Origin: Cyanophora paradoxa CCMP329 | Lineage: Eukaryota > Plantae > Glaucophyta | DNA length: 37,018 nucleotides | Assembly: GCA_004431415.1 (NCBI GenBank) | Contig: QPMI01000585.1 | Location: 1 to 37,018 of the forward strand | Direction: 5' to 3' | Part shown: positions 1,040 through 37,018 of the stretch, piece by piece | Layout: each line of letters starts with the position of its first letter | How positions within the stretch are numbered: the first letter of the stretch is position 1 | Notes under the pieces: generated by a model | Seen by the model: only the letters and a program-made list of their open reading frames with translations | Database searches by the model: none | What the model was told of the DNA's origin: nothing | Made by a program: the position numbers and the translations under genes

Positions 1040-2490
1040 TGGTGTGGATCTTAGTGTCGTACTCGCGGTCAATCGTGCTCCAGGCCACGTAGTTCTGCGG
1101 TGCCGTTTGCAAGTTGGTGTGCAGTCGTGTAGTCACCTCCGCCTCTATCAACCTCAGCCATGAGCGTAGAACCCACGACCATTCCAGAGGTAGCATACCC
1201 GCAATGTTGTTGTACAATTTGAAAGTGAAATTTCGTGAAGAGGAGCCGGGGCCAGACCTGGGTACGGGGATTCGAGGAGTAGAAAGCAAAGGCAGTACCC
1301 GAGGCGCCGCCGTGTGGCATTCGTCATCATTCCTTTGCGTCATCTTCCAGAGATTGTACATCTCAAAGGGGACGGCCTGCGTGGTCTTGTGAGTGGCATC
1401 GATGGCGCGCCGTCTATGTGGGTCTTGGAGCCGCCGTTAAAGGTGCGGTGAGGGCGGTGTTGCAGTGAACTTGAGCTCGAAGCACGCCGGATTGCGGGCC
1501 GATCGGCACGGAGGGCTCTATCTTTTTCAGGAGGCCAGAGAGCCAGAGGGCCTCCGCCTCGTCCGCGCTCACACCCGAGTCGATGTCAAAGTACACGTAC
1601 ACGGAGCAGGAGGCGGGATTCTCGAAATCGTTGGAGGTGACGCGCCGCATGATCGGATTCTGGATCTTCACGGTCAGCATGGAGGCGTAGCTGCCGTCCC
1701 AGACCACGGAATCCGTCCGCGCGTTGGCCGCTGCGCATCGCCGTAGAAATCGGGGTGGGCAGCACGGTCTTCACGATGGTGCTCGAGGTGGAAGGCATTT
1801 TGCGACCTCGGATGAGAAAGATTATCCGTAGAAGAGGGCGATGTCGTTGCGATGCCCGAGAGGCGGGCGGCGGGCTGCACGGCGTCGGAGCCCGTGGTGT
1901 GCCTGTAGGAAATCGAGCACTCGCGCAGCTCCGCGCAGAGGCTGGGCCCGTGCTGAAGTGGGGCTGGTCGGCGGCGTAGGGAGGGGGAAGACCTGGAACT
2001 TGAAAAGGTGAAGGGAAGCGGGGTAGCGGGAAGCGCGCGGGTTGCCGCCCGTGTAGAGGGCCCAGGGTCGCGGACTCGGATTGAATTTCGTGAAGAGCAC
2101 GTCGCCCTTAAGCGTACCCCGCGCCGTGTACGCACCCGTACCCGGTAGACTGTTGTCGGTGTACTGGTTCACGGTGGGGCCGTACCCCGTCTCCCTGAAC
2201 TTTACCTCGAGACAGCGCAGACGTTGGCCGTGGCCGTGGCAGGCGCCACCTTTTTCACGAGGCCGATTCGTGCAGCAGCTCGATGACCTCTGCGCTGAGG
2301 CTCAAGGGTCGAAGAAGAGCTGGTAGGAGTAGATCTTGGGCGTGGCGTAGGCGTTCTGAACGGCCTGAATCACGACGGGATTCTGCAGGAAGACGTCCAC
2401 GTAGCTGCCAGAGGAGATGCGTGCGAAATCCTTGGCGTTGGTACCAACATCCAGATCACCTTTGAGGGTCTGGTACCAGTTGGAAGTCAT
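1029..2490 (-). pseudogene. Frameshifted hypothetical protein (about 480 aa if joined), possibly structural
   Basis: Consecutive minus-strand ORF pieces with protein-like composition (2302-2490, 1822-2172, 1586-1798, 1414-1707, 1029-1361) follow a taaATG start and change frame repeatedly. Confidence 0.5.
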
Positions 2491-2527
2491 TTACACCGGG
2501 GCAGATATTTTTTCGGACTTGGGGGAA

Positions 2528-4517
2528 ATGAGGAGGGTGAAGCGCATTGTGTTGATGAGGCGGAGAGGGCCACGTCCCCTTGGACCCCCACAGAACGTGT
2601 CGGTTACGCGCGTGCCTGGTCAGTTTGCGGCTTTGATTGTGTGGTCCCCTGCCGCTGAAGCGGAAGGCTATGGTGTGAGTCGCACGGTTGGAAGTATAAC
2701 GGGCACCCCTATCATTTTCAGTAATGTCACTTCACCATTCACGAACTCCAACCTACTCCCTGGTCGCCTCTACCTCTACACGGTCTTCTCCTACCGGGAT
2801 CTGACCGACTCGGGGGGGACATATGAAGATCGCGGTGCCCCCATTGTCAGTATCATGATGCCCACGTCGCTCACATCCTCCACCTCCCAAACCTACGGCG
2901 ATTTCATTGCGGGGGGAGGCCCCACATCGCAGTCCGTACCCCTCCCCACTGTGGTTGTCACCATCAACTGGGAGGCCTTCGTGGACCCCGTCGACGAGAT
3001 TCGCATTTACAGGGATGGTGCATTTAACGGCATCGCAAACAATGCGCTATCGACCTCGTACACGGACGACAGCAACTCCCTGGTGCGCGGCACGCAGTAC
3101 TCCTACCAGGTAGCACCCGTTGTGGGCGGCATCGAGTACGAAAAGTCCGACCCGATATTGGCCTGGACGGTACCGAACGCGCCCACGAACGTGATTGCGA
3201 GCGCGCCCAACGACCAGCAGCAGCCTGTGAGCCTCACCTGGACGGCGTCCATGGGAGCGACGGGGTACAAGATCTACAGGGGCGGGGCCTACCTCGCAAC
3301 CTCCGCGACCAACTCCTACAGCGACGCGACCACGATCTGGGGTACGGGGTACGAGTTCCAGGTCTCCGCGACGAACTCGGGGGGCGAGGGGCCGAAGGGC
3401 ATTACAGTCTACGTCACAACGGACCCGGGGGCGCCCACCGGGCTCACTGCAACTCCAACGGCGGGGGCAGCCCAGCCTGTGGTGCTTGCGTGGTCCGCGC
3501 CGGCGATGGGCGTCACCGTCTCCTACAACATCTACAGGGACGGCGTTTTCCTTGCGAACGACACCAGCAGCCCGTATTCGGATACAACAACAGCCTATGA
3601 AACCACTTACACTTACATCGTCAAGGGTGTCAATCAGATTGGCGAGGAAGGCCATCGTCGTCAAAAGCGAACTACTGCAACGCTCCTGTTCTGGCTAATT
3701 CTCCTACACCGGAGCTCCCCAGACCTGGGTCGTACGACAGGGACTATGGCATTCGTGTCATCATGTGGGCAGCCGGGGGTGGAGGCGGAGAGCATGCTGG
3801 TTCGGGGGTCCGCGGGAGGCGGGGTGCTTGTGTCGTTGGTACACTGGCCGTGTCCTCGGGGGAAACGCTCATCTTGTCGTTGGATGCGGTGGTCCGAAAG
3901 GTGTATCGGGACTGCCACTGCTACTGTCTACGGAGGGGGCGGAAGGGGCTGGAGTCATAGCTGACCGGATACAAAAACGGTGCCGGTGGTGGGCGTTCTG
4001 CGATCCAACGCATTTCTGGACCGATTTGGTCGTTGCGGGGGTGGGGGTGGGGGTACATGCGATTCATTCGGAGGCGGAGGAGTAGGCGGGGGTGACCGGT
4101 GGTTCTGCTGAACCGGTTGGCTTAGCCAGTGAGGTGCAGCTCAAGGAGGCCTCAATCTCTGGTGGAGCCGGTGTTGTAGCAACAGGGGCAGGCCCAGCAA
4201 CCCAGGAACTTTACGCCAAGGTGGTGAGCCGGCCCTGATCAAACGGCTGGAGGTGGGGCGCTGGGGGGCGGCGGTTACTTCGGTGGGGTTCTGGGTCCAG
4301 CAAGAGCGGAGTGCCTGAGGCCCCGTTAGCAAGAATGTTTGGAGGTGGCGGCGGCTCGAGCTACATTGGCAATTGACGAACGCTACGACCTACCCGGGTA
4401 GGGCAAACGGCAGGAAACAGCGCAGTCCCACTACGTTGCTGGCATTGGCAGGGGTGGGAATGGTGGGTCAACGTTCAGCGATGGCGGCACGGTCACATAG
4501 TGATCTCGGCGGTCTGA
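2528..4517 (+). CDS. Fibre/adhesin-like protein: about 4 fibronectin type III repeats plus a C-terminal glycine-rich domain; frameshifted after about 3650
   Basis: FN3 signatures PNAPTNVIA..VSLTWTAS.GATGYKIYRGG..YSD..YEFQVSATNSGGEG and PGAPTGLTA..LAWSAP..YNIYRDG..YTYIVKGVN..GE. Out-of-frame pieces then read WAAGGGGG..VVGTLAVSSGETLIL and GGGGSSYIG. Start ATG 2528 follows an ATTTTTTC motif. Confidence 0.75.
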
Positions 4518-5574
4518 TATCCATTTGTTATTGGTCTGCAAGCGGCTACCTGGTCTTTGAGTGTTTGAACTTCCTGTGCAAGTTCTTGTACTGCTTTCAG
4601 CGTCAAGGAAATAAGCCTGTATAGTTTACCCCAAATCATCCGCGTTTTCAAAAACAGGTTCGGCAAGACACCTTGAACTTCCTGTGCAATGAGACCGTAA
4701 TCAATTTTCGAGCCCCCGGAGGTTGTGTTGATCCAATTAAAGGACACAGGGTTCAACTGCAGTAAAGAGGGAGAATGTTGCCAGGCTGTGATATTTGCTT
4801 TCAGGCGGCGATCGCTCGAGGAGTTTGTAAGGTTACCACTGGCATTGGAATAAACGGCCCTGTTTCGTCGCCTGTGAGCGATGAGACGATGAGCTGACCC
4901 GTTTATACCCACGCCGACGGTTCCGCACAGCAGTCGATCGCCGCCATTGTATTTCAAGGTTAGGCCAGCGGTGACACTCCCACAATCGATTATTGTAGTG
5001 TTTTGCATAGACAGGCCGCCAGAAGGGCTTGGACGGTTGAGGCGAATAGTTTACCGTTATATCCGACACCTTCAGTCCCGCACAACAGCCATCCGAGTCA
5101 CCGTACTTTAGATTTAAGCCGCCGCCACCGCCTGCAATGGTGGAGTTGTCCCGTGTATGTAGACGCTGTTGTCAGTGCTACTGTACCTGCTACCGATGCA
5201 TTTCCGTTCACTCTTAGCCACCCACCACGTTTGCCCCGCCCCCCTGCACGTACAGCGCTGCGTTCCCCTCTCCATCCGCAGCTCCGTTAAAGGTTAGGGC
5301 GTTTGTGGTGTGACCACTCCCGTCCAGGAGCCGTTCGTGACGGTGAGCCTCTGCGTCTTCACGCGCCCGGCACGGCCGATCCGCCCTCCCGCGTGCGCAT
5401 CTTATCGCAGCGCAGCTCGCCGACTCGCACGAGATCGGCCTCGGAGAAGGGGACGGCCGTGGCGTTGTAGGGGGCCTCGGTGGCCTGGTTTCCGAGGGTG
5501 GTCTCCTTAATCGTGTGATCGCCCTTGTGATTCACGCTGGCAGCGTAGGTGAACAAAGGAACAGCAACTGACAT
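4493..5574 (-). CDS. Tail-fibre-like protein with C-terminal intramolecular chaperone (Peptidase S74); frameshifted
   Basis: SSDRRLKANI...LLQLNPVSFNW...YGLIAQEVQGVLPNL followed by coiled coil LKAVQELAQEVQTLK is the S74 chaperone pattern. N-terminus at 5574 (aaaaATG after ATTTTCT). Confidence 0.75.
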
Positions 5575-5642
5575 TTTTGGATTGCATCAGAAAATCGATT
5601 ACATAGCAGCTTGCCGCTGCCATCCAGTAGATCGTGAGCCGT

Positions 5643-8600
5643 TTAGATTCGATGATCGTTTTCTGACATCGTGGGCCTGAACCTCACTCTGACGACAAAT
5701 CCGGTGTAGGTGACGTCGTAGACGTTCACTGTCATGTCGACATCCACTCCAAGTTTTATGGATGGGGTAACTGTTACGTTTGGCGGTGGGTTCCCCCTGG
5801 CTGGGCCATACAGGTAACAAGCCACACCTGCGTCGTACGCTTCCGGAAACTCATGTTGAACGTGACAATGTATGTTGTGTTGAGATCGAAAGCCGTGTTC
5901 GCGGAGTACGTGTGAAAGAAAGTGCCGTGTTGAATGTAAGCGTCCATGTTCACGTTTCTGTGCCCGTGGCCGGTGAGCGAGTACTCTGTGTGACTGTGCG
6001 TAGAGGGGGGAAGGTGAGAGGCTTCCCGTAACTTGAGTCTCCCAGTCCACGTTGTGACTGTGAGTCGAGGGGGGAAGGTGAGAGGCTTCCCCGTAACTTG
6101 AGTTTCCAGTCCACGGTGACGCCTGACAGTCGGGGCCGTCCAGTCGCTGATTTCTGAGATGGTGTGCTGGTGATCTGCGTGGGGGTACGTGCTCGGCTTC
6201 CCCGTGATGTTACCCCACGCCCAAGTTGCTGGAATTGTCGTATCATCGGCCTCCCTTTTAGATCTTGGTACTCTCCTGTATGCGCCACGGCCGCCAGCTG
6301 CGGTACGGCAACGCCACGGTGCTGACGGCCTGGCTCGCCCCGGCGCCATGTGCCACTCGTAGTTCTGCGATGCAAACACGGGCTGGCCTGGCTCGGGTGC
6401 CCAGTACTCGATGCCTTTGGCGATCTTTTTGGTGTAAGGGGCTGCAGGCCTGTCCACCAATTTATCGACGTACGCCTTGGGTACCAGCCAGTTGGCCTTG
6501 GGGCTCTGCGAATTAATCCCGTTGTCTATGAAGGCCCCGTAATTCCTGAAGGCCTCGGCCTCCCACCAATCCTGCATGCGGAAGGTCCCGGGAATTTCAA
6601 GGCGCGAGTTAGCGTCCGCCAGGCGGGCCACCTGCGCGCCTCCGTTCGACGAGACGCCCGAGTGACGGATGGCCGAGCCGAATTCGCGCCTTAATGCCTC
6701 GATGTGATTGATTCTGTTGAGGCCCTCCTGGTAGACGGCTATTAAGACGCGCTTCCGCCCCTTGGTCTCCTCCTTCACCATCTGCTTCAAATCGCGCATC
6801 AGCCGACTCAGGGCGAGCGAGGTCGACCCGAATCCCTCCTGCATTTTAACGGTGAGCTGAGAGAGGAAGAGCACGGTCGCTCTGTCAATTTCGAGCAGAG
6901 TCTTCTGGTCCTTGGGGGTACGGTAATCGTTGATGCTGTTATCGAGCGCGCGAATGAATGCCTGCAGCTCTTTCGGCTCCTTAATTTCGTTTAACCGCAG
7001 CTCCTGCGCCAAGAGCGAGGCCATTTCGCGCGCCTCCGAGGGGTCGTACACACCCAAAAATCCGGAGCCCAGCTCGCCCTCTAACCTATTAATTCGGTTG
7101 CGCAATTGGCTCGCCTCGTCGCCCCACGTCTCGACGCCCCAGTCGTAGATCTGTTGCGAGAGCTGCGCGATGAACTGTATGGTATCGGCGGCCCAGTCGA
7201 CGGGGTACTTGAAGAAGTTCTTCACGATTTCTTCCGCGCTGCGCCCGTTGATAATATCCACGATCACCTGCGCGATGGCGCCCGCGAGGATGGACAGGCC
7301 AAGTCCACCCACCGTGCCGATCCTCATTTTCGTGAGGGCGCTCAGGGCGGACGACATGCCCGTCTGCAGGCCAAAGGAGCCGACCGTCATGATCATCTGA
7401 TCGCGGAACGTATCGAAGAACTCGGCCTCCCCTATCTTGCCCTGCGAGAGCGCCTGGTAGGCCGAGAGCAGGCGCCGCCGTCGCCAGCCCAAGGCCGGCG
7501 CCGCCGCGCCCGCCCGCCGCATGGCCCGCGAGCCCGTACCCCCAGCCCGGCGCCCACCAAGTCGATGCCCGCCCCCTGAAATAAATCGGCTGCCCCGAAA
7601 GACATGCCGTCGTTGTTCGCCGTACCCGCCGCCGAGAAGAGCGTCTCGGCGCTGAGGGCCTCCTTGGCCACCCGGGCCGCCTTGCCCTCGGGCGCCCCAG
7701 GTAGGCGTCGCGCTGCTCTTTGGTGGTAAATCGCTCGAGGTCGAAATCCGCAAGGGCGTCGGCGGTGGCGCGGTTCCAGTCGCCGTAGGGCATCAGGGCG
7801 TTGCGCAAAATAACGTCCGAGTCGCCCATCACGCGCCTGTCGAGCGTCTGGAATACGCCCTCGGAGGGCAGGCGAGCTGTGCCCGGGCGCATTTCCTCCA
7901 CGGAAACGTCGTCCCTCTCCGCGAGCGTGATATCGTCCGGGCTGGCCGAGCCCACGCCCGCGCCCTCGTCGGCGTAGGCCCTTCCCCTCCTTTTTAACAG
8001 TTGATTGGCCTCCCGTTTCAATGCTTGGTACTCTGTCTCTACCTTGGTCTTTCTTGCCTCTTCCTCTGCCGCCTTGCGCTCTGCGATCTTCCGCCTCTGC
8101 TCTTCTATCTCGGCGTTGCGTCTCGCCGCGTTCTCCTTGGCCTGCTGCTTCCGCTCTTCGATCACCCTGTTTGCGTACTCCTTGTCCGCTTGGGCCTTTC
8201 TGTAGCGCTCCTCGATCTGACTCTTGGCCTCGTCTCCTCTCTTCCTTAGTTCGCCTATGAACGCCGTTGTATCTATGTAAAGCTTGTATTTGGCGGGTGG
8301 ATGCTCACGTTTAAAGGCCTCCAGATCGCGCACCATGGCGTCGTACTGTGCAAGCCCCTCCGCTGGAATGACGGCTCTTCGCTTTTCCCAAAACTTGCTC
8401 AGCTTCTCCACGTAATTGACCATGCCGACGTACGCGCTCTGTGCGCCGATGCTCACCGTTTTCGGATTGGCTCGCAGCTCTGCCAGAAACTCCCGCTTGT
8501 ACATCCCGTACATTGACGATTCGAGGGCCCCCCGCCACAGGCTCGCTTCCGTCCGCAGTTCGCGGTGCATCTCCTCCGCGTCGCCGTATGCTATCCAGAT

Positions 8601-19961: not shown

Positions 19962-19973
19962 CCCCGTACCCCG

Positions 19974-20312: not shown

Positions 20313-20314
20313 AC

Positions 20315-22520: not shown

Positions 22521-22532
22521 GACGCCCCCCAC

Positions 22533-23936: not shown

Positions 23937-24015
23937 ATTGCTTGTTAGCCAGGGTGTGCTTGGTAGGCCGATGTGAACCAATAAATTTTCCCACTGGGAT
24001 CCTAACCGAGGCACG

Positions 24016-25140: not shown

Positions 25141-25162
25141 TTTCTGAGGCCCACGCGAGCAC

Positions 25163-25490
25163 ATGGCAGCGACGGAGGCGACGCTGGGCGAGCAGATCGA
25201 GGCGCGCTGGGGCCGCTTCCTCGACCTGCTGGAGCCGGAGGCCAAGGAGCCCGGGGTGCGGGCGCAGATCCAGTCGCTGCGCGGCATCGGGCCACGGCGG
25301 TCATCGTTCTGTTCAGGAGGCACATCAACGCGGAGGCGGAATTGATCAAGGCGAAGGACGACTCGGTTTTCGAGAGGCTGCCGCAGGAGTACGCCTCGGC
25401 CGTGCGCTCGCTATTCTACGGCAGCGGGCCCGAGCTGCGCGAAAAGCTCTGGCTTTACATCGAGCTCTTCGTCGAGCTGACCTCGGAGTG
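25163..25490 (+). CDS. Small helical protein, frameshift near 25295
   Basis: MAATEATLGEQIEARWGRFLDLL... continues as FVQEAHQRGG/ELIKAKDDSVFERLPQEY...KLWLYIELFVELTSE in other frames. Confidence 0.5.
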
Positions 25491-25520
25491 AAAAATATTT
25501 CTAAGGGGCAGGCGTAAAGG

Positions 25521-26324
25521 ATGGACCCCTCGGCGATGCTTGGCTTCGAGGCGCTGGCCGTGGACGGGCCGAACCCCGTGGGAATCCCGCAGCCCCGGAA
25601 GAAGGGCCGCCCCGCGAAGGAGGGCAAGGAAAAGGGCGAGAAGGCGCCGAAGGCCGACAGGATGGCGCTGCCGGGCGACGGGCCCGCGGTGCCGCCGACG
25701 GCGCCGAGCAAGGGCGCGAGCTTCAGCGTGCAGGAGCACATCGAAATGACGAAGAAGAAGGAGCAGAGCGTGAAAAAGGCGCTGGGAATCGACCTGCAGG
25801 AGCGGCCGCGGGACGAGGCGCAGGTGGACGTGGACGAGAAGAAGCAGGTTCTGCGGCAGATCGCGCAGTACCGGCGCTCGTTCGGGGGCGAGCTTACGTC
25901 CACGAAGAAGCTGAGCCTGGCGACGCCGCTGGACGAGCTGAAGGAAGAGTACGAGGAGATTCAGCGCGAGCTGAGCACGCGGGGTTCGCTGGAGGCGGCG
26001 CGCCTCTTTCTGATCGCGGGCATGCACTCGCTGGAGCACCTGAACAAGGCGTACGATCCGATCGGCCTGAAGCTCGACGGGCTCGGGCAGGCGACGCTCT
26101 CTTCGATGGACCAGGTGCAGCCGATCCTGGAGGAGCTGGTGATCAAGTACTCGCGCTACGTGACCCTGGGGCCCGAGGCGCGCCTGGGGATGGCCCTGGT
26201 GCAGACGGTGCTGGCGGTGCACGCGGCGAACGCGAACCCGGAGGTGATGAAGGAGGTGACGGAGGCGGCGGCCTCGACGGCGGCGGAGCCCAAGGCGGTG
26301 GGCGGCAAGTTCAACGGCCTTTGA
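25521..26324 (+). CDS. DUF5767-like conserved NCLDV protein
   Basis: LDELKEEYEEI..RLFLIAGMHSLEHLNKAYDPIGLKLDG..ILEELVIKY...GPEARL matches the recalled family pattern (EflN..fDPf..kLDGws...feEL..KY....PEl.L). Confidence 0.7.
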   Translation: MDPSAMLGFEALAVDGPNPVGIPQPRKKGRPAKEGKEKGEKAPKADRMALPGDGPAVPPTAPSKGASFSVQEHIEMTKKKEQSVKKALGIDLQERPRDEAQVDVDEKKQVLRQIAQYRRSFGGELTSTKKLSLATPLDELKEEYEEIQRELSTRGSLEAARLFLIAGMHSLEHLNKAYDPIGLKLDGLGQATLSSMDQVQPILEELVIKYSRYVTLGPEARLGMALVQTVLAVHAANANPEVMKEVTEAAASTAAEPKAVGGKFNGL

Positions 26325-26377
26325 GTGTAAAAGCTTGTAATCAATTGCACCAAAAATTCACAATTTATTCGTCCGAG

Positions 26378-27160
26378 CTACTGCATGGGGGCTGCGTACA
26401 TAGACTCGGGGTTTAGGTAGGGCTCGAAGCTGGCCTCGTTGTCGTAGGGCCTGAAGGCCAGCTCGGGCGTGCGGCCTGCGAAGCGAAAGGCGCCGACCTT
26501 GCACTGCTGCACGGCGAGGAAGGACCACTTGAGGCCGAACTTGCCCTCGGGGATGGCGTAGGCGGTGTCGATTTTGACGAGGGCGGCCACCAGGTCGCCG
26601 GTGCCGATGGTGGCGCGCTCGGTGATGAGGTAGTTGGACATGTCGACGACGGGGATGGTCTTGCGCTTGCCCGCCATCGTCTGGGTGCGGATGCGCATGT
26701 TGAGGTACTTGTAGAAGGCCTGGCCCGACTCCTTGTCGACCTTGATGCGCACGCTGGGGGTCTGCAGCACCGAGATCTGGTCCTTGGAGAGGGAGCGGCC
26801 GGGCGAGACCTTGAGCTTGGCCTGGTTCTGCTGCACGAACTCGCAGAATTTCGCGTCCAGGGCCTCGAGCAGCTTGAGGAACTCGTCCGCGGCGGGGTTC
26901 GTCTGGCCGTCGACGGCGCTGAGATCGGTGAGGTCCAGCGTGTAGAATCCGCCGTTTTCTTCCATGACGAAGGCCTTCTTCTCGTCGCTCCACGCCTTGC
27001 CTTGCTCTGTGTTGATGCAGGGGTTGATGGTGACCATGGGCGGCGCGTACATCATGAGGCCCTGCAGGCCGTCGTACTTGGCCTTGATGCGGCCGGTGGC
27101 GTCGATCTCGAAGGCGAGCTTGGCGGGGTCGATCTCGTTGGCGTTGCGGACGGTGGCCAT
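26378..27160 (-). CDS. Single-stranded DNA-binding protein (NCLDV / T7 gp2.5-like OB fold)
   Basis: FLKLLEALDAKF..PSVRIK..LNMRIR..GDLVAALVKIDTAY...GKFGLKWSFLAVQ resembles viral SSBs (fG..w....q). Confidence 0.7.
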   Translation of the reverse strand: MATVRNANEIDPAKLAFEIDATGRIKAKYDGLQGLMMYAPPMVTINPCINTEQGKAWSDEKKAFVMEENGGFYTLDLTDLSAVDGQTNPAADEFLKLLEALDAKFCEFVQQNQAKLKVSPGRSLSKDQISVLQTPSVRIKVDKESGQAFYKYLNMRIRTQTMAGKRKTIPVVDMSNYLITERATIGTGDLVAALVKIDTAYAIPEGKFGLKWSFLAVQQCKVGAFRFAGRTPELAFRPYDNEASFEPYLNPESMYAAPMQ

Positions 27161-27264
27161 GTTGTCTGAGCTTAGCGTGCGATCAGCCTAGCGCTAGAAA
27201 ATATTTAAAGGGCGCCCCACCTGACTTCAGCTGAGCGCTCGGGTGATTCAGGTAAAACACGTGT

Positions 27265-27555
27265 TCAATTCGTCTCACTGGGGAGGGGAAGGGCTTCGAT
27301 CACGGCTACGCGAATATTCGAGAGTCTAAATCTGGCGCTGGGGCTGGCGACGGCGTACAGGGCGATCTCGTTCTTGGCGGGATTGAGCATGATGTGCTGG
27401 AAGCAGTCGCCCTTGCGGCACTCCAGCGAGATGTTGCGCAGCAGCCTGCAGTAGTTGAAGCAGATCTCGCCGTTCTCGTCCAGATCCTCTTCCATGGCCT
27501 CGTACTCGAAGATGCCGAAGGTCAGGCAGCAGGTGAAGTACTTGGGGGCGCACAT
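27265..27555 (-). CDS. Hypothetical protein
   Basis: 96-aa ORF with its own upstream TATA-like and CACCTGA elements. Confidence 0.6.
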   Translation of the reverse strand: MCAPKYFTCCLTFGIFEYEAMEEDLDENGEICFNYCRLLRNISLECRKGDCFQHIMLNPAKNEIALYAVASPSARFRLSNIRVAVIEALPLPSETN

Positions 27556-27663
27556 TCTCTCGTTGGCTTACGGTTAAAGTGTGAGGAACCGAGGCCCCGT
27601 GCCCCCTCTTAAGGCCCCGCGTCAGGTGAGCTTCAGACGAAGTCAGAAAACACGCGTTCAATT

Positions 27664-28137
27664 TCAGAGGGATACAGAGCCATCAAGATCAAAGGAAATC
27701 ATCCTATCGTCAAGGCTAAAGGGGTAGCCGCACTGCTGGTGCAGCTGATCGACCTTCATCTGGGGGGAGCCCATCTGCCTCCGCAAGACCCAGATGTTGC
27801 ACTGATACCCCTCAAAGAATGTGTAGGCGAGGGAGCGGCCTGAGGGAGAGATCGCCGCGCAGAACGAGGCCCACTCGGGTACTTGAACATGCGTGCAGTT
27901 AAGGCGCCCCGCGGAGAAGGTCACGATGTAGGCCGTCTGTCCGGTTTGGGTCTTGGCGCAGGAGACCAGGGTGAAGGAGAAGCCATCGTCGGAGAGCTTC
28001 ATGAGGAGGATCTTACCGGGGCAGTCCTTGCAGTCATCTACTTTGCCGTCCTTGAGAACTTCCACCTCGCGGTCAATGGGCTCGCCGATCACGCGCACGG
28101 TGTATTCCTCGACGAAGAACTGGGCAACAAGGGCCAT
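27664..28137 (-). CDS. Hypothetical protein with beta-propeller-like (TolB/WD) blades
   Basis: MKLSDDGFSFTLVS and AAISPSGRSLAYTF..NIWV resemble propeller blade repeats. Confidence 0.5.
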   Translation of the reverse strand: MALVAQFFVEEYTVRVIGEPIDREVEVLKDGKVDDCKDCPGKILLMKLSDDGFSFTLVSCAKTQTGQTAYIVTFSAGRLNCTHVQVPEWASFCAAISPSGRSLAYTFFEGYQCNIWVLRRQMGSPQMKVDQLHQQCGYPFSLDDRMISFDLDGSVSL

Positions 28138-28395
28138 GTTGCTTGCTGGTTGCGTTGAGAGAGATTGAGAGTGTGAGGGGAACGCCGCGTGCCGCGTGCT
28201 TATAGAGGCCGTTCAGGTGAGGTTCAGGTGAGCGCTCACCTGAGGAGGGGGGGAGAAGTGACGCGGACGCGAAAGATTCCGTCATGGGTTTTTCCGTCAT
28301 GGGCTGGAACTTGGACCTGGGACTCGGGCCCAAACTCTCCCGGTAAAAAAATAGATTCGAACTTGGCGCCATTTTCTGATGCTAGTCTACCCACC

Positions 28396-28797
28396 ATGGA
28401 GCCCGCCATCTCCCAGCTGGTCTCCCAGGGCGCCAAGCTCGACAAGGCCCTCAACATCTACCTTCAGCTGATCGAGCTGGCATGGCCCGAGCCAATGATT
28501 GCCCAGGCCTGCAAATCGCTCCACGTGGCGTTCGATGCGCCGTTCTCAGGTGACCCGGATCAGGTGACATCCTGGACCAAGGAGGAGATAAAGGCAGACT
28601 TTGAGGCGCTTTTCTCATTTATGAGCAAGAAGTATGCCGAAATCGAAGCAGCCAAGGATGCCGAAGCCCAAGGCGGTGAAGACGCAGAAGCCCCAGAAGC
28701 CCCAGCCCAAGGCCCTGCCGGCGACCAAGGCACCGAAGTTCAAGGCGCTGGGCCCCCTGCAGAGGGCGAAGGCCAAGGCCGACCTGCGTCCGCGTAG
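28396..28797 (+). CDS. Hypothetical protein inside the repeat locus
   Basis: MEPAISQLVSQGAKLDKALNIYLQ...; ATTTTCT upstream and Kozak-like caccATGG. Confidence 0.6.
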   Translation: MEPAISQLVSQGAKLDKALNIYLQLIELAWPEPMIAQACKSLHVAFDAPFSGDPDQVTSWTKEEIKADFEALFSFMSKKYAEIEAAKDAEAQGGEDAEAPEAPAQGPAGDQGTEVQGAGPPAEGEGQGRPASA

Positions 28798-29062
28798 GCC
28801 CAAGGACATAGCCAAGGAGGCAAGCGGCCACAGGCCGGACTGGCCGGCGCCGGCGCCCTACCGCTACCTCAAGCTGGACAAGAGCAACGATACCGGCTTC
28901 ACCAGGAGGAGGTGGCCTGAGCCTCTCAGGTGGCTGGAGCCAAGGGAGATCAAGGCCGGAGGCGGTATCGAGCTAGCGCTAGCGCTGGGAGGCGGTGGTG
29001 GTGCAGACTTGGAGGAGCAGGCCTTGCTAGATACCATCAACTTGGGCAAGGTAGAGCTGTGA
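28634..29062 (+). CDS. Lys/Pro-rich basic protein overlapping the previous ORF
   Basis: 142-aa ORF that ends exactly where the inner inverted-repeat arm begins. Confidence 0.4.
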   Translation: MPKSKQPRMPKPKAVKTQKPQKPQPKALPATKAPKFKALGPLQRAKAKADLRPRRPKDIAKEASGHRPDWPAPAPYRYLKLDKSNDTGFTRRRWPEPLRWLEPREIKAGGGIELALALGGGGGADLEEQALLDTINLGKVEL

Positions 29063-29785
29063 TATCTAGCTAGTGCTTGCTAGCGCTTGCTTAATTAATT
29101 AACCTGAAGTTACCTGACATTTACCTGAAAGGTTACGGAGGTTGCGGACGCGTCACAATTCCGTCATGGGTTTTCCGTCATGGGCTGGAACTTGGACTCG
29201 GGACTCGGCCGCAAAACTCGGCGTAAAAAAATACACGTGTTTTTGTCAAGTCTAACGTACCGACTCTGTACCCCTCTATTCGACTTGAAGGTAATTTCAA
29301 GTTGCTATGACATTATCGTTATTCACAATCAATGAATACTGTAATGTAGTATAGAACGGTCACAAGTGGGGTACGTCGTTCTTGTTCAAGTCTCGAACTT
29401 ACCGGGAGAATTCCCGGCCGAGTCCCGAGTCCAAGTTCCAGCCCATGACGGAAAACCCATGACGGAATTGTGACGCGTCCGCAACCTCCGCAACCTTTCA
29501 GTTAATTAATTAAGCAAGCGCTAGCGCTAGCTAGCTAGATATCGATACCACCTAGCTAGTACTACTTAGTACTACTAGGATACTAGGACATTTGGACATA
29601 GGGGGTACCCCGCCGAGTTCAAGTCTTGAACTTACCAGGAGAATTCCCGGCCGAGTCCCGAGTCCAAGTTCCAGCCCATGACGGAAAACCCATGACGGAA
29701 TCTTTTGCGTCCGCGTCATTTCTCCCCCCTCCTACGTTCGCAATCTCCGGACGCCTCCCACAATTTTCCAAGGTACCCAGCAAGC

Positions 29786-30073
29786 ATGGACTTTACTGAC
29801 TGCGCAGGTATCAAGCAGGAGCCTGAGGACCTTCTCACCGCCGCCGCCTCGGCGCCCAAGCAGCGCCGCCGCCGCGGGCCCAAGTCCCTCTGCTCCGAGC
29901 CCGAGATCCTGGCGGCTCCGGCGCGCGGGCCGGAGACCGTGGACCTGACCCTGGAGGAGCCGGCGCGCGGCCCGCCGCGCCTGCTGATCCTTGCGGCGGC
30001 GGCGGCCGCGCTCTACTACGCCGCCCGGCGCCTGGGCCCGCAGCTCTCGGGCCTGGTCCGGAACCTTTTCTAA
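29786..30073 (+). CDS. Small protein with C-terminal TM helix
   Basis: MDFTDCAG...LLILAAAAAALYYAA; ATTTTCC upstream. Confidence 0.6.
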   Translation: MDFTDCAGIKQEPEDLLTAAASAPKQRRRRGPKSLCSEPEILAAPARGPETVDLTLEEPARGPPRLLILAAAAAALYYAARRLGPQLSGLVRNLF

Positions 30074-30083
30074 GTCTTTCCCA

Positions 30084-30425
30084 ATGGAGGCCCTGCTAGA
30101 TCTCATGGCCTTTGCGTTGCCCATCTTCTTCCTGGTAGGCCTCAGCCGCATGGAGCGCGAGGCGCGCCAGCCCGAGCGCGTCGAGCGCGGCCTCACCCCC
30201 GCAGAGCAGCGCAACCTCACCGAGTGGGACCTGGCGCTCATGGCCGGCCGCATGCTCGACGGCAACCGTCTCGAGCCGGGCCACCGCCTCAAGCTAGAGG
30301 ACGGCGGCACGGCCCTCTGGGACGGCGAGGCCTGGAAGCACGATTCGACGGGCGAGCCGATGAAGCTGCTCGCCTCCGGCAACAAGTACTGGCGCGGCGA
30401 CTCGATGGAGTTCCGGCGCCCGTGA
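30084..30425 (+). CDS. Small protein with N-terminal TM/signal segment
   Basis: MEALLDLMAFALPIFFLVGL; TTTTCT upstream. Confidence 0.65.
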   Translation: MEALLDLMAFALPIFFLVGLSRMEREARQPERVERGLTPAEQRNLTEWDLALMAGRMLDGNRLEPGHRLKLEDGGTALWDGEAWKHDSTGEPMKLLASGNKYWRGDSMEFRRP

Positions 30426-30473
30426 TTGCTAGTGATTTTCTGGTCCCTCTTCTAGCCCTTCTACCAGCAAAGA

Positions 30474-30757
30474 ATGCCCGACCCTCGCCCGACCCCGCCG
30501 CAGGTGCCGAGAGCGCGGGCAGCTCGGACGAGTACTCCGAGCTCACGGATCCCGACCCCGACGAGCCCGGCGACGCCTTCGCGACGGAGAACGAGCGCTC
30601 CCTCATGCGCGTCTACGAGGCGCTGCGCGAGGCGATCTACTGGGAGGATCCCCGCCTGGGAACCCTGATGAACTTTGCCAAGTTCGCCGAGTTCATGTTC
30701 GCTATGACCGTGCCCTTCACCCGAGTCGTGCTCTGGGATAGGAACAGGAACTGGTAA
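30474..30757 (+). CDS. Hypothetical protein, probable frameshift near the start
   Basis: ATG 30474 follows ATTTTCT, but the coding-like frame (SSDEYSELTDPD...LMNFAKFAEFMF) is offset. Confidence 0.45.
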
Positions 30758-30784
30758 AGGCATTGAATACAACAGTACAGAGCC

Positions 30785-31162
30785 CTACGAGCTAGAGCTG
30801 CTATCGCCCGAGTCCAGGCGCGCCTTCTTGGCCTTGGAGCGGCGGAGGCGGGAGACGTACTGCAGGCGCAGGTTGCGCACTAGGAGCTCGCCGGCCGTGG
30901 TGCCCGGCAGCCCGGGAACCGAGTCCGTGGGCAGCAGCTGTCCCTCGCGTATCGCCTTGTACGTCTTGCGCTTGTTGAATGCAACCTTCTCCGTATCCTC
31001 CGCGACCGGGACCTCCAGCGCCAGCGTGCGCTTGGCCTTCTTGACGGAGACTGCGTTCGCACGCTCCAGCTTCACTCCGGGCTCCAGGGGGGTAGGGGCG
31101 ACTGCGTTCGCCACCGGGTTCTCAGCGAAGGAAACACGGGGGGAAGAGCCGCCGCGGGGCAT
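30785..31162 (-). CDS. Basic hypothetical protein
   Basis: 125 aa; ATTTTCT upstream. Confidence 0.65.
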   Translation of the reverse strand: MPRGGSSPRVSFAENPVANAVAPTPLEPGVKLERANAVSVKKAKRTLALEVPVAEDTEKVAFNKRKTYKAIREGQLLPTDSVPGLPGTTAGELLVRNLRLQYVSRLRRSKAKKARLDSGDSSSSS

Positions 31163-31178
31163 GGTTCGCTCAGTTTAC

Positions 31179-31505
31179 CTAGCGTTTAGAAAATAGCGCG
31201 CGAGCCTCGAGCACCAGGAGACCCGCCACAACCGCTGCGGCGATGACAACGGCCACCTTGAGCCAGTGCCAGAAGCGCTCGGCCCCGTCCGTCAGCGCGC
31301 GGCCCGCCTTGCCCGGTGCGGTGAGCGCGGAGCCCAGGGCGCCCGCCGCAATGTCGGCCCACGCGCCTCCGTCGCCGCGCAGGACGTTCTCTCGGTTCTT
31401 CGTCTCCACCGTGGCGCCAATCGCCGCGTTGATCTCGCCGAACTGCAGGCGCGGCTGGCCCTTGGGGCCGAAGGTCTTCGTGAGCAGCGCATCGAGCCAG
31501 CTCAT
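31179..31505 (-). CDS. Membrane protein (C-terminal TM)
   Basis: FWHWLKVAVVIAAAVVAGLLVL. Confidence 0.65.
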   Translation of the reverse strand: MSWLDALLTKTFGPKGQPRLQFGEINAAIGATVETKNRENVLRGDGGAWADIAAGALGSALTAPGKAGRALTDGAERFWHWLKVAVVIAAAVVAGLLVLEARALFSKR

Positions 31506-31542
31506 CCTTGGCTAGCTTCCAACCGGGGTTTCGAAAAACTAT

Positions 31543-32022
31543 CTAAATGACCAGGCCGCGCAGGTACCAGACCATCAGGAGCGAGCCGCCCAGCGCCACC
31601 AGCAGCGGCAGGTGCCCGTCCACGGCGCGCCGCATGCGGTTGTCGCACAGCTCCTGGCAGCTCAGCCGGTTGGCCTCGTCGAAGTAGGCGCTCACGGCGT
31701 AGGGGCGGCCGGCCGGCGGGTGCAGCCCCCGGCCCAGGCACGGGTAGGCCTCCGCCTGCCGCCGCGCGGCCAGCGCCGCCGTCGCGGCGTGCGCCGCCTC
31801 CCTCTGCCCCGGCGCGATCGCCACGAGGGGCAGCGCCCCCACGCTCCTGCCCTTGCCCGCCCCCTTGATCGTTTTCAGCGACGGCGGCGCGGGATCCGCC
31901 GCCTTCACCCTGGGCCCCTCCGCCGCCGCCCCACCCTTAGCCCTCGCCGCCTCGCCAATCTTGCTGCATCGCGAATCCGATTTGAACACGGTGCACAGCA
32001 GCTTCTCTACCGCGCTCGACAT
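31543..32022 (-). CDS. Cys-containing membrane protein (C-terminal TM)
   Basis: Five Cys residues and a C-terminal LPLLVALGGSLLMVWYL; ATTTTCT upstream. Confidence 0.65.
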   Translation of the reverse strand: MSSAVEKLLCTVFKSDSRCSKIGEAARAKGGAAAEGPRVKAADPAPPSLKTIKGAGKGRSVGALPLVAIAPGQREAAHAATAALAARRQAEAYPCLGRGLHPPAGRPYAVSAYFDEANRLSCQELCDNRMRRAVDGHLPLLVALGGSLLMVWYLRGLVI

Positions 32023-32351
32023 CTTCGAACGTGTAACGAGAATGAAGAAAATTTAAAAGGGAACGCCAACGGACTCGGAACTCGGAAAGGGGGAGGGGAG
32101 AATGAACTTTGAAAAGTTAGCGCCCGGCGGGGCGCATGCCGGCCGCCGCCTGCGAGGCGCCGCCGGGGGCGTAGAGGGACTTGGCGGCATAGCCGAAGCC
32201 CACGCCTATGACCGCCGAGGCCGTGGGGTGCCGCCGAGGAGCCAGGTGAGGGTCGCGCCAGCGCTCCTAGCGAGTAGTGGGCAGGATAAGCTTCGAAGGC
32301 CATCGCGGGACCGAATTGAGGGAGGGTTGAGAAAAAATACCGCCTCGGGCC

Positions 32352-34780
32352 TCAGTGGTGCAGGTGCCGGAAGCGCGCGTTGTCCTCGGCCTCCTCGCGC
32401 GCCGCCTGCTCCTCCGCCGCGTCGATCTCGCCCGCGAGGCCTCCCGCGCCGCCCGCCTTGCGTACGAGGTGGGCACCGGCGCCCGTCGGTAGCTGTAGCC
32501 GAGGCCCTTCGCCAGCTCCACGGTCCCGTCCTCGAACGCCCGCCAGCTCTCCACGGCCTCCGCCGCGCTCATCCGCTTCGCGCGGAAGCCCGCCTCCAGC
32601 TCGGCGCGGAAGCGGCGGTCTCCTGCATGCGCCGGGCCCAGAGGCCCTGGCGCCGCTCCTCCGCCTCGCGCGCCTGGCGCGCCGCCAGCGCCCGCCGCTC
32701 GGCCTCCTGCTGGGCCCCGAAGCCCTGGATCGCGGAGAGGACGGCGCTGGGGCCGGGGACGGGGCTGGGGCCGTCGGCGCTCGCGGAGGAGGCCGAGCTC
32801 CCGTAGCCGCTCGGGCCCGCGCCGCCGTTCGTCGGGGTACCCTGCCCTTGGATCAGGAGGGGGGCGGGGGAGGGGGGTACGGAGGAAGACGGGGGGTACG
32901 CGGGCCGGACCTGGCGCGGCAGCATCTCGTCGATGCGCTGCTGGCCGGGGCGCTGCTGGGGGGCCGTGGCGGGGCTGGGCGGAGGAAGGCCGGCGCCGAG
33001 TTGCGGGTGCGCTTGCCCTTGCCCTTGGTGTGGGGCTGGACGAGGAAGGGCCCGACGTCGGCCACCGGTCCTTGAACTGGGCGACGGGATCGCGATCGCC
33101 TCCAGCGCCGGCTGGCTCTCGCCGAGGGAGAGCGGGCCTTGGGGACGATGCCGCGGATGTAGGTCTGCCAGATGCCGCGAGCTTGTAGGAGTAGAGGCGG
33201 CACGAGGAGCCGAAGCCGGCGAGGGTCTCGTCCAGCCGGCCGTTCTCGATGTCGGCGCCGACGCGGCGGAGGTGTCGGGGCCCTCCGTGCGCGCGATGTA
33301 CTCGACGATGCCCGCGACGCTCGTCATCCAGCCCTCCGTGTTCGGGGCGGCGACGTAGGTGGTGGGGTCGACGGCGCAGTGGGTGACGATGAAGCGGGTG
33401 AGGGGGCACTTGGTCGTCTCCTGCCAGAAGCCGAGGCGCTGCGCCCGCAGCCACGCCGGCTCGAAGGCCTGGATGCAGGAGGCCTTGCCGTCGGAGAGCG
33501 CGTGGATGATCTTCCAGGCGAAGGTGAAGGCCGCGACCATGAGCGCCGGCAGCTCGTTCTCGCGGATGTCGGAGTGGAGGTAGGTGCGCTTCTTGGCCGG
33601 CTTGTGGTCGAGGGGGATGAGGACGACGCGGGCGAAGAACTCGAGCATGCGGTTCTCGAGCTGCGCCGGGGCAGGTGAGCAAGGGCGCCGGGGAGAAGGA
33701 GGGGAAGGGGAACGGGCGCACCTGCGGGAAGCTGTTGCAGACGATGACAAGCACCTTGCGCGTCGCCTTGGTGCGCACATCGTCGCCGCGGACGTTCTTG
33801 AAGTTGCGGGAGTAGGCGTCGCCGGAGCGCATCTTAAGCTCCTCCTCCGAGCAGGCCCGCGGGTCGAGGCCCTCCGCCATCACCATGCAGATCGCCTCCT
33901 CGCCGCCGTGCTCCGAGAAGGCCGAGCCCTTGGAGGGGCGGTAGACGCAGACGCGGCTTGGCGGCAGGCACTCCGTCATGATCTGCGTCACCATCGACTT
34001 GCCTGTGCCCGACTGGCCCTTGATGATGCCGCAGTACTGCAGCATGGCGCCCTCGGACGGCGGCTCCATCTCCGCGCGCGGCTCCCGGTCGAAGACGGGC
34101 TTGTCGCAGAAGTTCCACGGCCCGACGAGGTTGAAGGCGTAGAGGACGGCCGCCGCGTAGCCGAACTCGTCGGCCGTCACGTAGCCGTTGTCCGCCAGGT
34201 GCTTGACGACGTTGGGCATGAAGGGGTGCAGCATGCCGTACACGGTGGGCCAGTCGCAGGTCTCGGTCGCCTCCTCGATGCCCGCGGGCAGGCGCCCCTG
34301 GATGTAGCAGGTGTTCATGTAGCCCGCGTACCGCTCCCGTGCCTCCTCGTGCGTCATGACGAGGACGCAGGCGCTGCCCGTGCTGTCCTGCGGCGCCCGC
34401 ACCACGAAATCTGCGCAAGGGGCGTCGGCGGGGTACGGGGCGGGGCGCAGGGGTACGGGCGGCGCACGCGTGTCGCAGGCGAAGGCGAAGCCGGGGATGA
34501 CGGGCATCTCGGGGCAGACGTCCTCGAGCTGGAGGGACTCCTCCACGAACGTGCGCGTCCGCCCCGAGAGCACCTCCTTCGAGAAGGTGAACTCGAAGGA
34601 GCCGGGGTTGGACTCGTAGGTCTTGTGGAAGGTCATCGCCAGCAGCTGGATGACCTCCTTCATCGTCCCGCGCCCGGCGTGCCTGTTCGCGCTGACCTTG
34701 TCGTACACGAAGAGGTTCGGGAGCTCGACGTAGAAGGTGGGCGGGGAGTTCGGGCCGTAGGGTCTCTGGCGCACGATCCG
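32352..34780 (-). CDS. Superfamily 3 (D5-like) helicase core and C-terminus, intron-containing, with additional frameshifts downstream
   Basis: Walker A GIIKGQSGTGKS, Walker B-like CMVMAE, motif C VIVCNSFPQ. Removing intron 33661-33721 joins LENRMLEFFARVVLIP (Arg-finger region). Probable stop TGA at 32352-32354 after EEAEDNARFRHLHH. Confidence 0.75.
33661..33721 (-). other. Spliceosomal-type intron (61 nt)
   Basis: CAG|GTGCGC...GCTCAC...GCGCAG|CTC. Phase 0; joins two ORF-track frames exactly. Confidence 0.85.
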
Positions 34781-34931
34781 CTGCGCCGGCAAAAGGGGGT
34801 TAGCGGGGTTCGAACGCGGGAGGGGGGCGCACCGGCCGAAGGCGGCTCGGGCCCAGCGCCTTAAGCAGCTGGGCCACGGCCGCCTCCGGCCTCTAAGGGG
34901 CGGGGCGCGCAGCTAAGGGGGCGGGGCGCAC
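34781..34931 (-). other. Spliceosomal-type intron (151 nt), or two introns (34893-34931 and 34781-34832) around a 60-nt exon
   Basis: Donors AAC|GTGCGC (34931) and CCG|GTGCGC (34832), branch GCTAAC, pyrimidine tract, GCGCAG acceptor (34781). Both solutions keep the frame. Confidence 0.75.
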
Positions 34932-37018
34932 GTTGTTCTTGACGAAGAGGCGGAGCGCATCCTGAATGGCCGCCTCCTTCTTGGACTTGTTGTCCTTGCT
35001 GTACGTTGTCACGTCGTCGTACTTGGACATGTCGATCTCGGGCGCCTCGCGCGGCTGCGCCGCCAGCTCCGCCCGCGCCAGCTCCAGCCTGGTGGCGCGC
35101 GGCGGCTCGCCGTCGCTCTCCGACGCCTGGCCGTCGTCGTGGTCCGCCTCCGCCTCCGCCCGCTGATCGCGCAGCAGCTGCCGCTCGCGCTCGCGCCGCT
35201 GCTGGGCCCGGCGGGAGAGGCGGCCGGCGCGGGGGCCGGAGGGGGCGGAGGGGGCATGTGGCCGAGGGAGGAGGCGGGCGTGGCGACGGGCGTGCCCCGC
35301 GGCGGCGAGGGGATGGGCGGGCGAGGGGGTACCCTGGACGGAGGGCGGCGGGCGCTGCGAGGGCTGCGAGGGGCGGAAGGGACTGAAGGCCGAGGGGTTG
35401 CCGCTCGGGCGCCAGGAGACGTCGGAGGCGGCGGGGCTGGCGGGGGCACGGGGCGGGCGGGCGGCGGGGGGAGGAGGGGCGGCCTGGGGCCGGCGTCGCC
35501 GGGCTCGTCGTCCGAGAACTCCTCGATGGGCGGCGGCGGGGCCGTCGAGGGAGGGGGAGGGCGGGAGGGGTAGAACTCGTCGACGGGGGGCTCGGGCTCG
35601 AAGGTGTCCCCCGCCCCCCGTCGCCGCCAGCTCCGCATCGGGCTCGCCCTCGCGCTCGCGCTCGCGCTCCAGCTCCATCGCGTACTCCTCCGCCACCTCC
35701 AGCTCGCGCCGAGGCCTTCGCGTCCGCCGCCGCCGCCAGCGCGGCCTCCATCTCCATCTCGCGCTCGGCCTCCAGCTCCTCCTCTGTGGGCAGGGTCATT
35801 CCTTTGCGCCTCTGGAACGCCCTAGGCTCAGAAATTAGGGGCGGGGAGGGCGCACCGGCCGCCTGGGGGCCGCCGCCTCCATCTCCTCGCCGAGATCGCG
35901 CCGCGCCGCCGGGGCACCCGCCTCCTCCTCCTCGAACCGCAGGTCGATGTAGGCGGCCTTGCCCTTGCCCTTGCCCTTCGCCTGGGCCTGGGCCTGGGCC
36001 ACGCGCATGGCGCGCGCGAGGCCCTCCGCCGTGATCATGCTGCCGCCGGCCCGGGCGCCCGAGGCGGAGGCCGTCGCCTCGCCGATCGCCGCCTGGAAGG
36101 CCGCGGCCATCGCCTGGCCGGCGCGCGGCAGGCTCCGCGCCCGCTCCAGCTCCTCCTCCGTGAAGTCCAGCGCCCGGGCCGCGGCGGCGGCCTCGGCCTC
36201 GCGCTCCGCCTCGGAATCCGAGTCGGAATCCGAGGACTCCGCGGCCGCGAGCATGGGGCGGGGGCGGGAGGCGGCGGCGGCGGCGGCGGCGGCCGCCTTG
36301 TCGAAGACGGGGACGAAGAAGGTGAGGGCGAGGGTGCGCCGCGGCACCACGTACTTCACGGCGCCGTGGATCATGGGCCGCCGTGCGAGTCCGGCATCGA
36401 GCACCGGCGGATGACCTGCGAGGGGGTTTAAATGGCATCTAAATAGTCTAAATAGCATCTAAATAGCATCCAAATAGCATCCAGCGGCGACCTGCACCAC
36501 GCGGTCGCCGATGGTGACGCCGGGCACCTCGAACTCAGGAACCAGGTCGAAGGCGCAGATGCCCTGGCGCCCGTGGCGGTCCCGGCACGTCCGGCAGGCC
36601 GCCTCCAGCACGATGCGGATGGCGTAGGCGTCGGTGAGGACGCCGGTGTCCGGCCGCTCGCCCCAGACCGCCGAGCTCTCGTGCGCGTGATGAACGCGCG
36701 GCTGTTCCGCATGATGCAGCGCGCCTCGACGCCCATGATGCCCTTCGCCAGCCTCTGCGGGCCGGCGGGGGTCGGCGGGGAGGGGGCACGGGCGGCCGGG
36801 GCGCACCTCGGGCGTGTAGGCCGGGTCCGAGCTGAGCACCAGCAGCCAGAGCAGGTGCGGGGCCGCCTCCGCCATGCGGTTGAAGTAGAACTCCTCCGGG
36901 CCCGCCAGCAGGCCAATCGTGCGCCACTCGCCCTTGGCGATGTGCCGGGCACGGCGCCCATGAGCAGCCGCAGCGCTGCGCCGCGAACAGCCGGCGGGCG
37001 TCGGCATCCGCCCGGGCT
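34932..37018 (-). CDS. Upstream exons of the helicase gene (or an adjacent spliced gene); 5' end outside the window; several frameshifts
   Basis: Coding-like pieces (EEFYFNRMAEAAPHLLWLL; AYAIRIVLEAACRTC; MIHGAVKYVVPRRTLALTFFVPVF; MTLPTEEELE; KEAAIQDALRLFVKNN) are linked by GT-AG introns. Confidence 0.5.
35812..35855 (-). other. Spliceosomal-type intron (44 nt)
   Basis: CCG|GTGCGC..CCTAAT..TTCCAG|AGG removes an in-frame stop and joins APRRP to RRKGMTLP in phase 0. Confidence 0.6.
36416..36491 (-). other. Probable intron (76 nt) containing (GATGCTATTTA)n tandem repeats
   Basis: CAG|GTCGCC ... AT-rich 11-bp repeats ... CCCCCTCGCAG|. A nearby indel is needed for the frame to continue. Confidence 0.5.
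36755..36806 (-). other. Spliceosomal-type intron (52 nt)
   Basis: GAG|GTGCGC..GCCGAC..CCGCAG|AGG joins DPAYTPE to RLAKGIMG in phase 0. Confidence 0.75.

Follow-up and report, generated by a model that had tools for sequence, protein, structure and literature searches.

What interrupts the helicase gene of a viral element, and why the helicase gene in particular? The question is raised by contig QPMI01000585.1, of which positions 1 to 37,018 (37,018 nucleotides (nt); hereafter the window) were analyzed. The window holds part of a multicopy, gamadvirus-related mriyavirus, and its right end is occupied by an SF3 helicase gene that an earlier note, made from the sequence alone, had read as split by five to six short spliceosomal introns. 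The introns are real, and seven are in view in this minus-strand gene, all removed from RNA. Their restriction to the helicase is likely a trait of gamadvirus-related viruses and not the outcome of decay after integration. On balance, and with modest confidence, we regard it as an inherited trait that probably exists because the helicase is the first nuclear transcript and is driven by a host promoter (a two-programme model). The gene and its parts are as follows.

32352-37018, minus strand: SF3 (D5-like) helicase gene, eight exon stretches in view, TGA stop at 32354-32352, 5′ end beyond the window
36755-36806, minus strand: intron of 52 nt, GTGCGC...GCAG, phase 0, skipped in X15 and X16
36416-36497, minus strand: intron of 76-82 nt in the window copy, donor at 36491 or 36497; X15 and X16 skip 36419-36497 (79 nt)
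35784-35855, minus strand: intron of 72 nt, GTGCGC...ACAG, phase 1
34781-34931, minus strand: intron of 151 nt, GTGCGC...GCAG, phase 0, skipped whole in X15, X17 and X19, not in X2
34411-34467, minus strand: intron of 57 nt, GTGCGC...GCAG, phase 1, in frame without a stop, skipped in X15, X16, X17 and X19, not in X2
33995-34018, minus strand: Walker A motif (GQSGTGKS), from the translation
33661-33721, minus strand: intron of 61 nt, GTGCGC...GCAG, phase 0, between motif C and the presumed arginine finger, skipped in X15, X17 and X19, not in X2
32842-32910, minus strand: intron of 69 nt, GTCCGG...GCAG, phase 0, in frame, skipped in X15, X16, X17 and X19, not in X2

Twenty sequencing runs are listed as containing the stretch; none is recorded as RNA, and the label RNA-type used here is a guess borne out by GT-AG skips. 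Assembled contigs of three RNA-type runs from three studies (X15, X17, and X19) and of one DNA run (X2) were compared with positions 32000-37018 (joints drawn from 15 of 47), and contigs of X15 and X16, which belong to one study, with positions 17019-37018. Four skips (32842-32910, 33661-33721, 34411-34467, and 34781-34931) occur in all three RNA-type runs and not in the DNA run. The remaining three come from X15 and X16, and at these places continuous contigs of X2 (20 and 21) span the DNA. GT...AG ends are exact in six of the seven introns, the seventh being 3 nt off between the window copy and the expressed copies. The RNA contigs are not quite identical to the window (the main X15 contig has nine differences over about 1,770 letters), so the splicing demonstrated is that of near-identical copies.

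The earlier note had named five GT-AG segments, and all are found in the sequence with GT...AG ends, four of them starting with GTGCGC. The shared donor word that it pointed out, GTGCGCCC, is indeed enriched: it occurs five times on the sense strand of the gene, whereas 200 dinucleotide shuffles gave 0.4 on average and never more than 3. Its segments 33661-33721, 34781-34931, and 36755-36806 are spliced as drawn, whereas the ends of the other two shift. The segment placed at 36416-36491 is a real intron, but the RNA skip covers 36419-36497, which in the sequence of the window does not end in AG; at this place the expressed copies depart from the window copy by about 3 nt. For the 44-nt segment at 35812-35855, the donor at 35855 is used, but the acceptor lies at 35784, giving 72 nt, and the 44-nt form is not seen among the RNA contigs, in which rare forms are lost. 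In the X15 and X16 contigs the joint spans 35784-35864 and, as there are two copy types, includes either 8 or 23 intervening letters; the form with 8 letters (a skip of 79) resolves to the 72-nt intron plus a 1-nt difference. This junction is present in 8 of 18 paralog gene models. The 57-nt and 69-nt introns had been missed because both keep the frame, and the remark that most introns carry a branch site was overstated, as a YTNAY branch-like word lies within the last 45 nt of three of the seven. The intron stretch 36419-36491 alone is AT-rich (43% GC) and consists of an 11-nt tandem repeat.

A further suggestion, that 34781-34931 might be two introns, does not hold for the RNA contigs, which drop rare forms and remove the 151 nt as one piece. 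A second GTGCGC donor does lie inside this intron, at 34832. Between GT-AG pieces of 39 and 52 nt stands a candidate in-frame cassette exon of 60 nt (34833-34892, minus strand), which the divergent copy P0014 conserves and model P0034 uses; none was seen in the RNA contigs, with the same limit on rare forms.

The note had allowed that transcripts might retain the segments, or that the frame changes might be mere indels. That the breaks are sequencing indels or decay now deserves next to no credence. The window does have many single-base differences from all runs, and each remaining frame change in the helicase comes down to such a base, at which every run with coverage disagrees with the window; assembly errors are the simplest explanation. 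The RNA, however, skips GT-AG blocks of 52-151 nt that the DNA contigs keep, which refutes this account for the window. The paralog gene models likewise omit introns (8 to 14 of 18 models per junction), so that the host annotation already contains the spliced protein, without a viral label; these models are predictions and not independent proof of splicing. Splicing in turn implies transcription in the nucleus by RNA polymerase II (Pol II), as the note had proposed.

Which helicase this is matters for the comparison that follows. ESM Atlas features place it nearest clusters of DUF5906, D5_N, and Pox_D5 (score 0.97), whereas Pfam gives AAA_22 alone, at an E-value (E) of 5e-4, below the cut-off. 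The names motif C and arginine finger (the latter presumed) follow the usual layout of SF3 helicases. The 5′ end lies past 37018, and full paralog models have about 135 further residues. Compared with SF3_hel2, the helicase of gamadvirus-type viruses, the window protein gives an hhalign probability of 0.2% (from shallow profiles), and family F24 has no tblastn match in the window. By its language-model features, the window helicase is classed as D5-like and is not detectably SF3_hel2. The N-terminal part, where D5-like primase-helicases of the SF3_hel1 type carry an AEP domain, has no match in the search, the whole protein has no sequence match in PDB, and its fold model is of low quality (predicted local distance difference test, pLDDT, 32). 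Among 1.84 billion representatives the helicase has 10 matches, all 60-100% alike and none of them an outside relative, and it has none in viral contigs; a DUF5906 search of three records gave nothing, and a pattern scan of prokaryote genomes gave 0 matches. As no outside relative was found, there is no intronless homolog against which the window helicase can be aligned.

Breaks also occur in the unrelated SF3_hel2, which was located in three records and further contigs and is broken in all six distinct gamadvirus-type metagenomic viruses (V1-V6, 47-78% identical) at places where homologs run on. Two of the contigs (L091 and L093) are named in the table of Yutin et al. (2024; PMC11253617), where their helicase is published as split or "frameshifted." That table lists SF3_hel2 over two to four open reading frames (ORFs) in several contigs, the paper takes frameshifts in some of these genes as decay, and its main text contains neither "intron" nor "splic" (Yutin et al., 2024). 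Spliced alignment of V2-V6 with the V1 protein, whose core has no interruption, places 8, 5, 4, 1, and 1 introns, respectively, of 60-549 nt (that of V6 is 128 nt), with one clear GC donor and one doubtful. V1 and V6 share a frame-changing 5′ break where V2 and V5 run on, and a GT-AG intron closes it. Over 20 junctions, GT-AG ranks first among the 256 dinucleotide pairs (loss 81; next 176; median 430), with 13 junctions at the best score, five within 3 points, and two poor; the test is centered on junctions from a GT-AG-aware aligner and covers placement within 24 nt only. Four intron positions recur in at least two viruses, one of them, just before motif C, in four of six. The breaks are insertions with GT-AG ends, and those of V2 are identical in independent assemblies, which argues against degradation here too. 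Judged from these alignments, the SF3_hel2 breaks in the six environmental viruses are likely introns, not decay. The aligner also proposed five "introns" ahead of reference residue 200 (three in L086 and two in L096), which were dropped, since these regions are open frames; an in-frame 126-nt insert in V6 was not counted as an intron, though it remains one of the 20 junctions tested. A more remote member of this broad helicase family (L071:4893-8018), outside the spliced alignment, is an open frame of 1,042 amino acids (aa) with no evident break.

The intron before motif C, about 500 nt long in four viruses, contains a conserved antisense ORF of 173-182 aa, zinc-knuckle-like (CxxC-H-C) and with a weak zinc-finger match:

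L096, 3603-4142, minus strand: nested antisense gene
L092, 639-1187, minus strand: nested antisense gene
L086, 5524-6045, minus strand: nested antisense gene
L082: nested antisense gene

It is free-standing in V6 (at about L093:14339-14809). In two viruses the antisense gene continues past the donor into the antisense of the exon.

The window introns are themselves old. Divergent copies, with cores 66-69% identical, keep the DNA of the 151-nt intron (P0014, E 5e-14) and of the 72-nt intron (P0013, E 4e-9), and a divergent DNA contig has a replaced stretch of the same length across the 61-nt intron, together with about 62 extra nt of its own nearby. Positions common to divergent subfamilies imply that the introns predate the subfamily split, with some turnover; the intron-bearing form is the form that multiplied. 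These observations bear on a second alternative, offered in the earlier note as intron gain after endogenization: the introns were acquired during host residence, the helicase region being the most transcribed in latency, and the metagenomic contigs are likewise host-resident elements. The multicopy state of the element in one eukaryote gene set and the short, C-rich introns fit this account, as do the latency genes of punuivirus, which acquired host-like introns (bioRxiv 10.64898/2026.10.09.758095), and the entry of introners into viral elements after integration (PMC12166617). We nevertheless hold it to be distinctly unlikely. Gain must have preceded multiplication, given the shared positions in the subfamilies, positions are also common to viruses 54-78% alike, and the gamadvirus-type contigs have probable helicase introns too. 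Nor do the seven introns form an introner family, their mutual similarity being limited to C-rich words of 10-18 nt. Gain during an ancient integrated phase may still have taken place.

Is the helicase really singled out? In 926 gene-locus pairs of 23 other families (208,402 aligned aa), no split changes the frame and no same-frame split has a stop, whereas nine helicase pairs (7,312 aa) have 19 and 6 such splits, respectively. The screen also returned 100 open in-frame inserts, eight small frameshifts, and a single insert, of 42 nt, that contains a stop. The earlier note had seen no introns in the other genes it named from the window, and for the capsid the transcript is unspliced, while HUH, HUH_long, and VLTF3 are known solely as intact ORFs. 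A third alternative accepts inheritance without any regulatory division: introns land anywhere in a virus transcribed in the nucleus, are purged from highly expressed structural genes, and survive in a low-dose helicase gene. Such purging would account, with no difference in promoters, for 25 breaks in the 7,312 aa of the helicase pairs and 0 in the 208,402 aa of the rest, and it fits both the range of intron number, from 1 to 8, and the involvement of two unrelated helicase families. It is weakened by other presumably low-dose genes that are also unsplit (VLTF3 in 79 loci, the F04 nuclease in 70, and RuvC in 34) and by mirusvirus capsid genes, which tolerate many introns (PMC12768974). We consider it improbable, if the most serious of the three alternatives.

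Nuclear transcription alone does not explain the pattern, as a virus without its own RNA polymerase uses that of the host for all its genes; since every gene needs the host polymerase, the asymmetry between the helicase and the rest calls for a second cause. A candidate lies upstream of the genes. Of 31 window genes, 23 have the word [AT]TTTC 11-50 nt upstream, whereas 8.3% of random windows contain it; ahead of gamadvirus genes, TTCTGA is enriched 21-fold. A common TTTCTRA-like motif about 20-30 nt before the start codons of most window and gamadvirus genes may thus be a viral promoter element. It is absent within 120 nt of three of four guessed gamadvirus helicase starts. In the two-programme model, the helicase would be read first as a host-like unit, the host spliceosome would do the cutting, and introns would be tolerated or would help expression; most other genes would run from the TTTCTRA-like motif, presumably with viral late factors, and stay intron-free. 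From the splicing itself it is likely that these viruses depend on the host nucleus for their helicase gene.

Several points weigh against this explanation or the evidence beneath it. The RNA stems from copies about 98-99.5% alike and not provably from the window locus, and two more GT-AG skips, both on the plus strand and in X16 only, lie outside coding frames. Capsid RNA is present in the very runs that show the spliced helicase. As for the promoter, the gamadvirus helicase starts are guesses, one of the four does have the motif, and the promoter of the window helicase lies outside the window. Genes without the motif, including VLTF3, are intron-free, hence a host-type promoter does not imply introns. 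The gamadvirus introns are predictions from metagenomic contigs, which may or may not be free viruses. Finally, the control loci are 80 ATPase-centered viral loci with 62 distinct ATPases, sampling mainly the late cluster; their families were seeded from ORFs of at least 110 aa, HUH_long is present in six loci only, and four of the nine helicase pairs come from one virus.

A bolder version of the inherited-trait reading can be put forward only tentatively. In gamadvirus-related mriyaviruses the helicase, of either family, would be the one gene kept under spliceosome control as a host-sensing replication switch; the published "frameshifts" would all be introns, and the nested antisense gene would be tolerated because splicing removes it.

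Introns of this kind are already known, since spliceosomal introns have been described in mirusviruses and, as cited in PMC12768974, chloroviruses and pandoraviruses, as well as in punuivirus. The earlier note's remark on novelty thus stands for mriyaviruses, for which no description of introns was found in the literature searched (subscription papers and bioRxiv supplements lay outside the search), and does not extend to algal DNA viruses generally. Punuivirus, a latent giant virus of Chlamydomonas, has spliceosomal introns in 61 of 506 genes, enriched in genes expressed before virus production, while virion genes are under a viral promoter (bioRxiv 10.64898/2026.10.09.758095). It resembles the present case in having introns in a subset of genes, but it is a giant virus with many such genes, whereas here a virus of the approximately 37-kb class has one, recurring in two unrelated helicase families. 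Mirusviruses share GT-AG introns as a sign of nuclear transcription and genes inside introns; in contrast, it is their virion genes in which introns are enriched, and the introns contain homing endonucleases (PMC12768974). In the present case virion genes lack introns, and the gene nested in gamadvirus-type helicases encodes an antisense zinc-knuckle-like protein. Regions related to Mriyaviricetes embedded in a glaucophyte assembly are a further parallel, being mriyavirus-like and integrated in an alga; they may even be the present family, as the naming style of the gene models resembles that of a glaucophyte gene set. By its own account, that study left introns out of consideration (bioRxiv 10.1101/2025.04.19.649669).

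As far as the searches reach, four points are new: that mriyaviruses have introns, that these keep to the helicase gene even though two unrelated helicase families are involved, that the published frameshifts can be reread as such introns, and that an antisense gene lies nested in one. For the last two, Fig. S10 of PMC11253617 and the GenBank entry of PEV2 may bear on novelty; Table 1 of that paper lists the PEV2 helicase under the range 2045..6606, and GenBank may already annotate it as joined. Nuclear transcription of mriyaviruses has so far been inferred only from their missing polymerases (PMC11253617), and the window now provides direct RNA support for it. The published view of a gamadvirus helicase decaying at its 5′ end is likely overturned, and the gene central to replication in this group is mis-annotated by prokaryote-style gene calling. 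Because a virus of the approximately 37-kb class has a single spliced gene here and the host has public RNA data, the reason why viral introns cluster in early or latency genes can be tested directly.

The identity of the element rests on its other genes.

22563-23936, plus strand: major capsid protein gene, Pfam Capsid_N (E 2.7e-7), no intron
17292-18362, minus strand: A32 packaging ATPase, intact ORF, Pfam Pox_A32 at 22.2 bits (cut-off 22.8), 49% identical to a gamadvirus-type ATPase
15715-16545, plus strand: VLTF3, intact ORF, Pfam Pox_VLTF3 (E 1.7e-24)
14641-15483, minus strand: HUH endonuclease, intact ORF, within 12587-15483
12587-14617, minus strand: long HUH protein, intact ORF
26378-27160, minus strand: gamadvirus-family gene (family in 49 of 80 loci), taken for an ssDNA-binding protein, no intron in the covered part

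The capsid gene is spanned by a single unspliced contig (22570-24008) in both X15 and X16, and further unspliced contigs cover 24229-26352 and 26446-27027 (the latter in X16). No silence is read from bins without RNA cover (5 of 30 in X15 and 7 of 30 in X16), and no ranking of genes from depth. With "Gamadviridae" (Mriyaviricetes) the window shares the capsid, A32 ATPase, VLTF3, RuvC (found by Pfam as Pox_A22), and two HUH genes, including the long one, and the putative ssDNA-binding protein. The HUH genes match gamadvirus-type loci by tblastn (E 2e-11, 3e-5, and 4e-12) with no Pfam match, and the long one has 676 aa against 1,700 aa in its relatives. Altogether 9 of 24 gamadvirus-type gene families match the window, one at E 0.006 only; nuclease family F04 has no match there. 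No DNA or RNA polymerase match was obtained among the 36 window ORFs scanned, the element extending past the window's right end. Mriyaviricetes are characterized by genomes of 35-45 kb that lack both polymerases and by a PDDEXK nuclease and VLTF2. The window differs in its capsid, which is shorter than and remote from the gamadvirus type (E 0.007), and in its helicase; because the latter is D5-like and not detectably SF3_hel2, the element is called gamadvirus-related and is not filed in "Gamadviridae."

Its copy number is seen in 18 helicase gene models on 18 differently named contigs and 15 capsid clusters within one EukProt naming series. The copies are likely integrated in the genome of a microbial eukaryote, given their spread over many contigs (flanks form no part of this evidence). 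Capsid scans of viral contigs found nothing. ATPase relatives beyond the ten closest matches are about 50% identical, a Pleurochrysis protein among them. The ATPases P0042 and P0046, from ENA and Logan contigs, are 90% and 80% identical to that of the window and are thus close relatives outside the gene set.

Minor observations complete the picture of the window. The two plus-strand skips of X16 lie at 30432-30503, which is intergenic and weak and joins the 3′ end of the upstream gene to the next gene, and at 31321-31554, antisense to two small genes. The region 28248-29729, most of it non-coding, contains inverted and direct repeats nested in one another, whose arms measure 43-91 nt and match at up to 98-100%; it may be an origin or the place where the ends join. 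At 250-650, short tandem repeats of the GGGACTT type run in opposite orientations and resemble words in these 28-29 kb repeats. At 2417-5008, a fibronectin-III repeat protein and an intramolecular-chaperone (Peptidase_S74) ORF are likely fiber genes.

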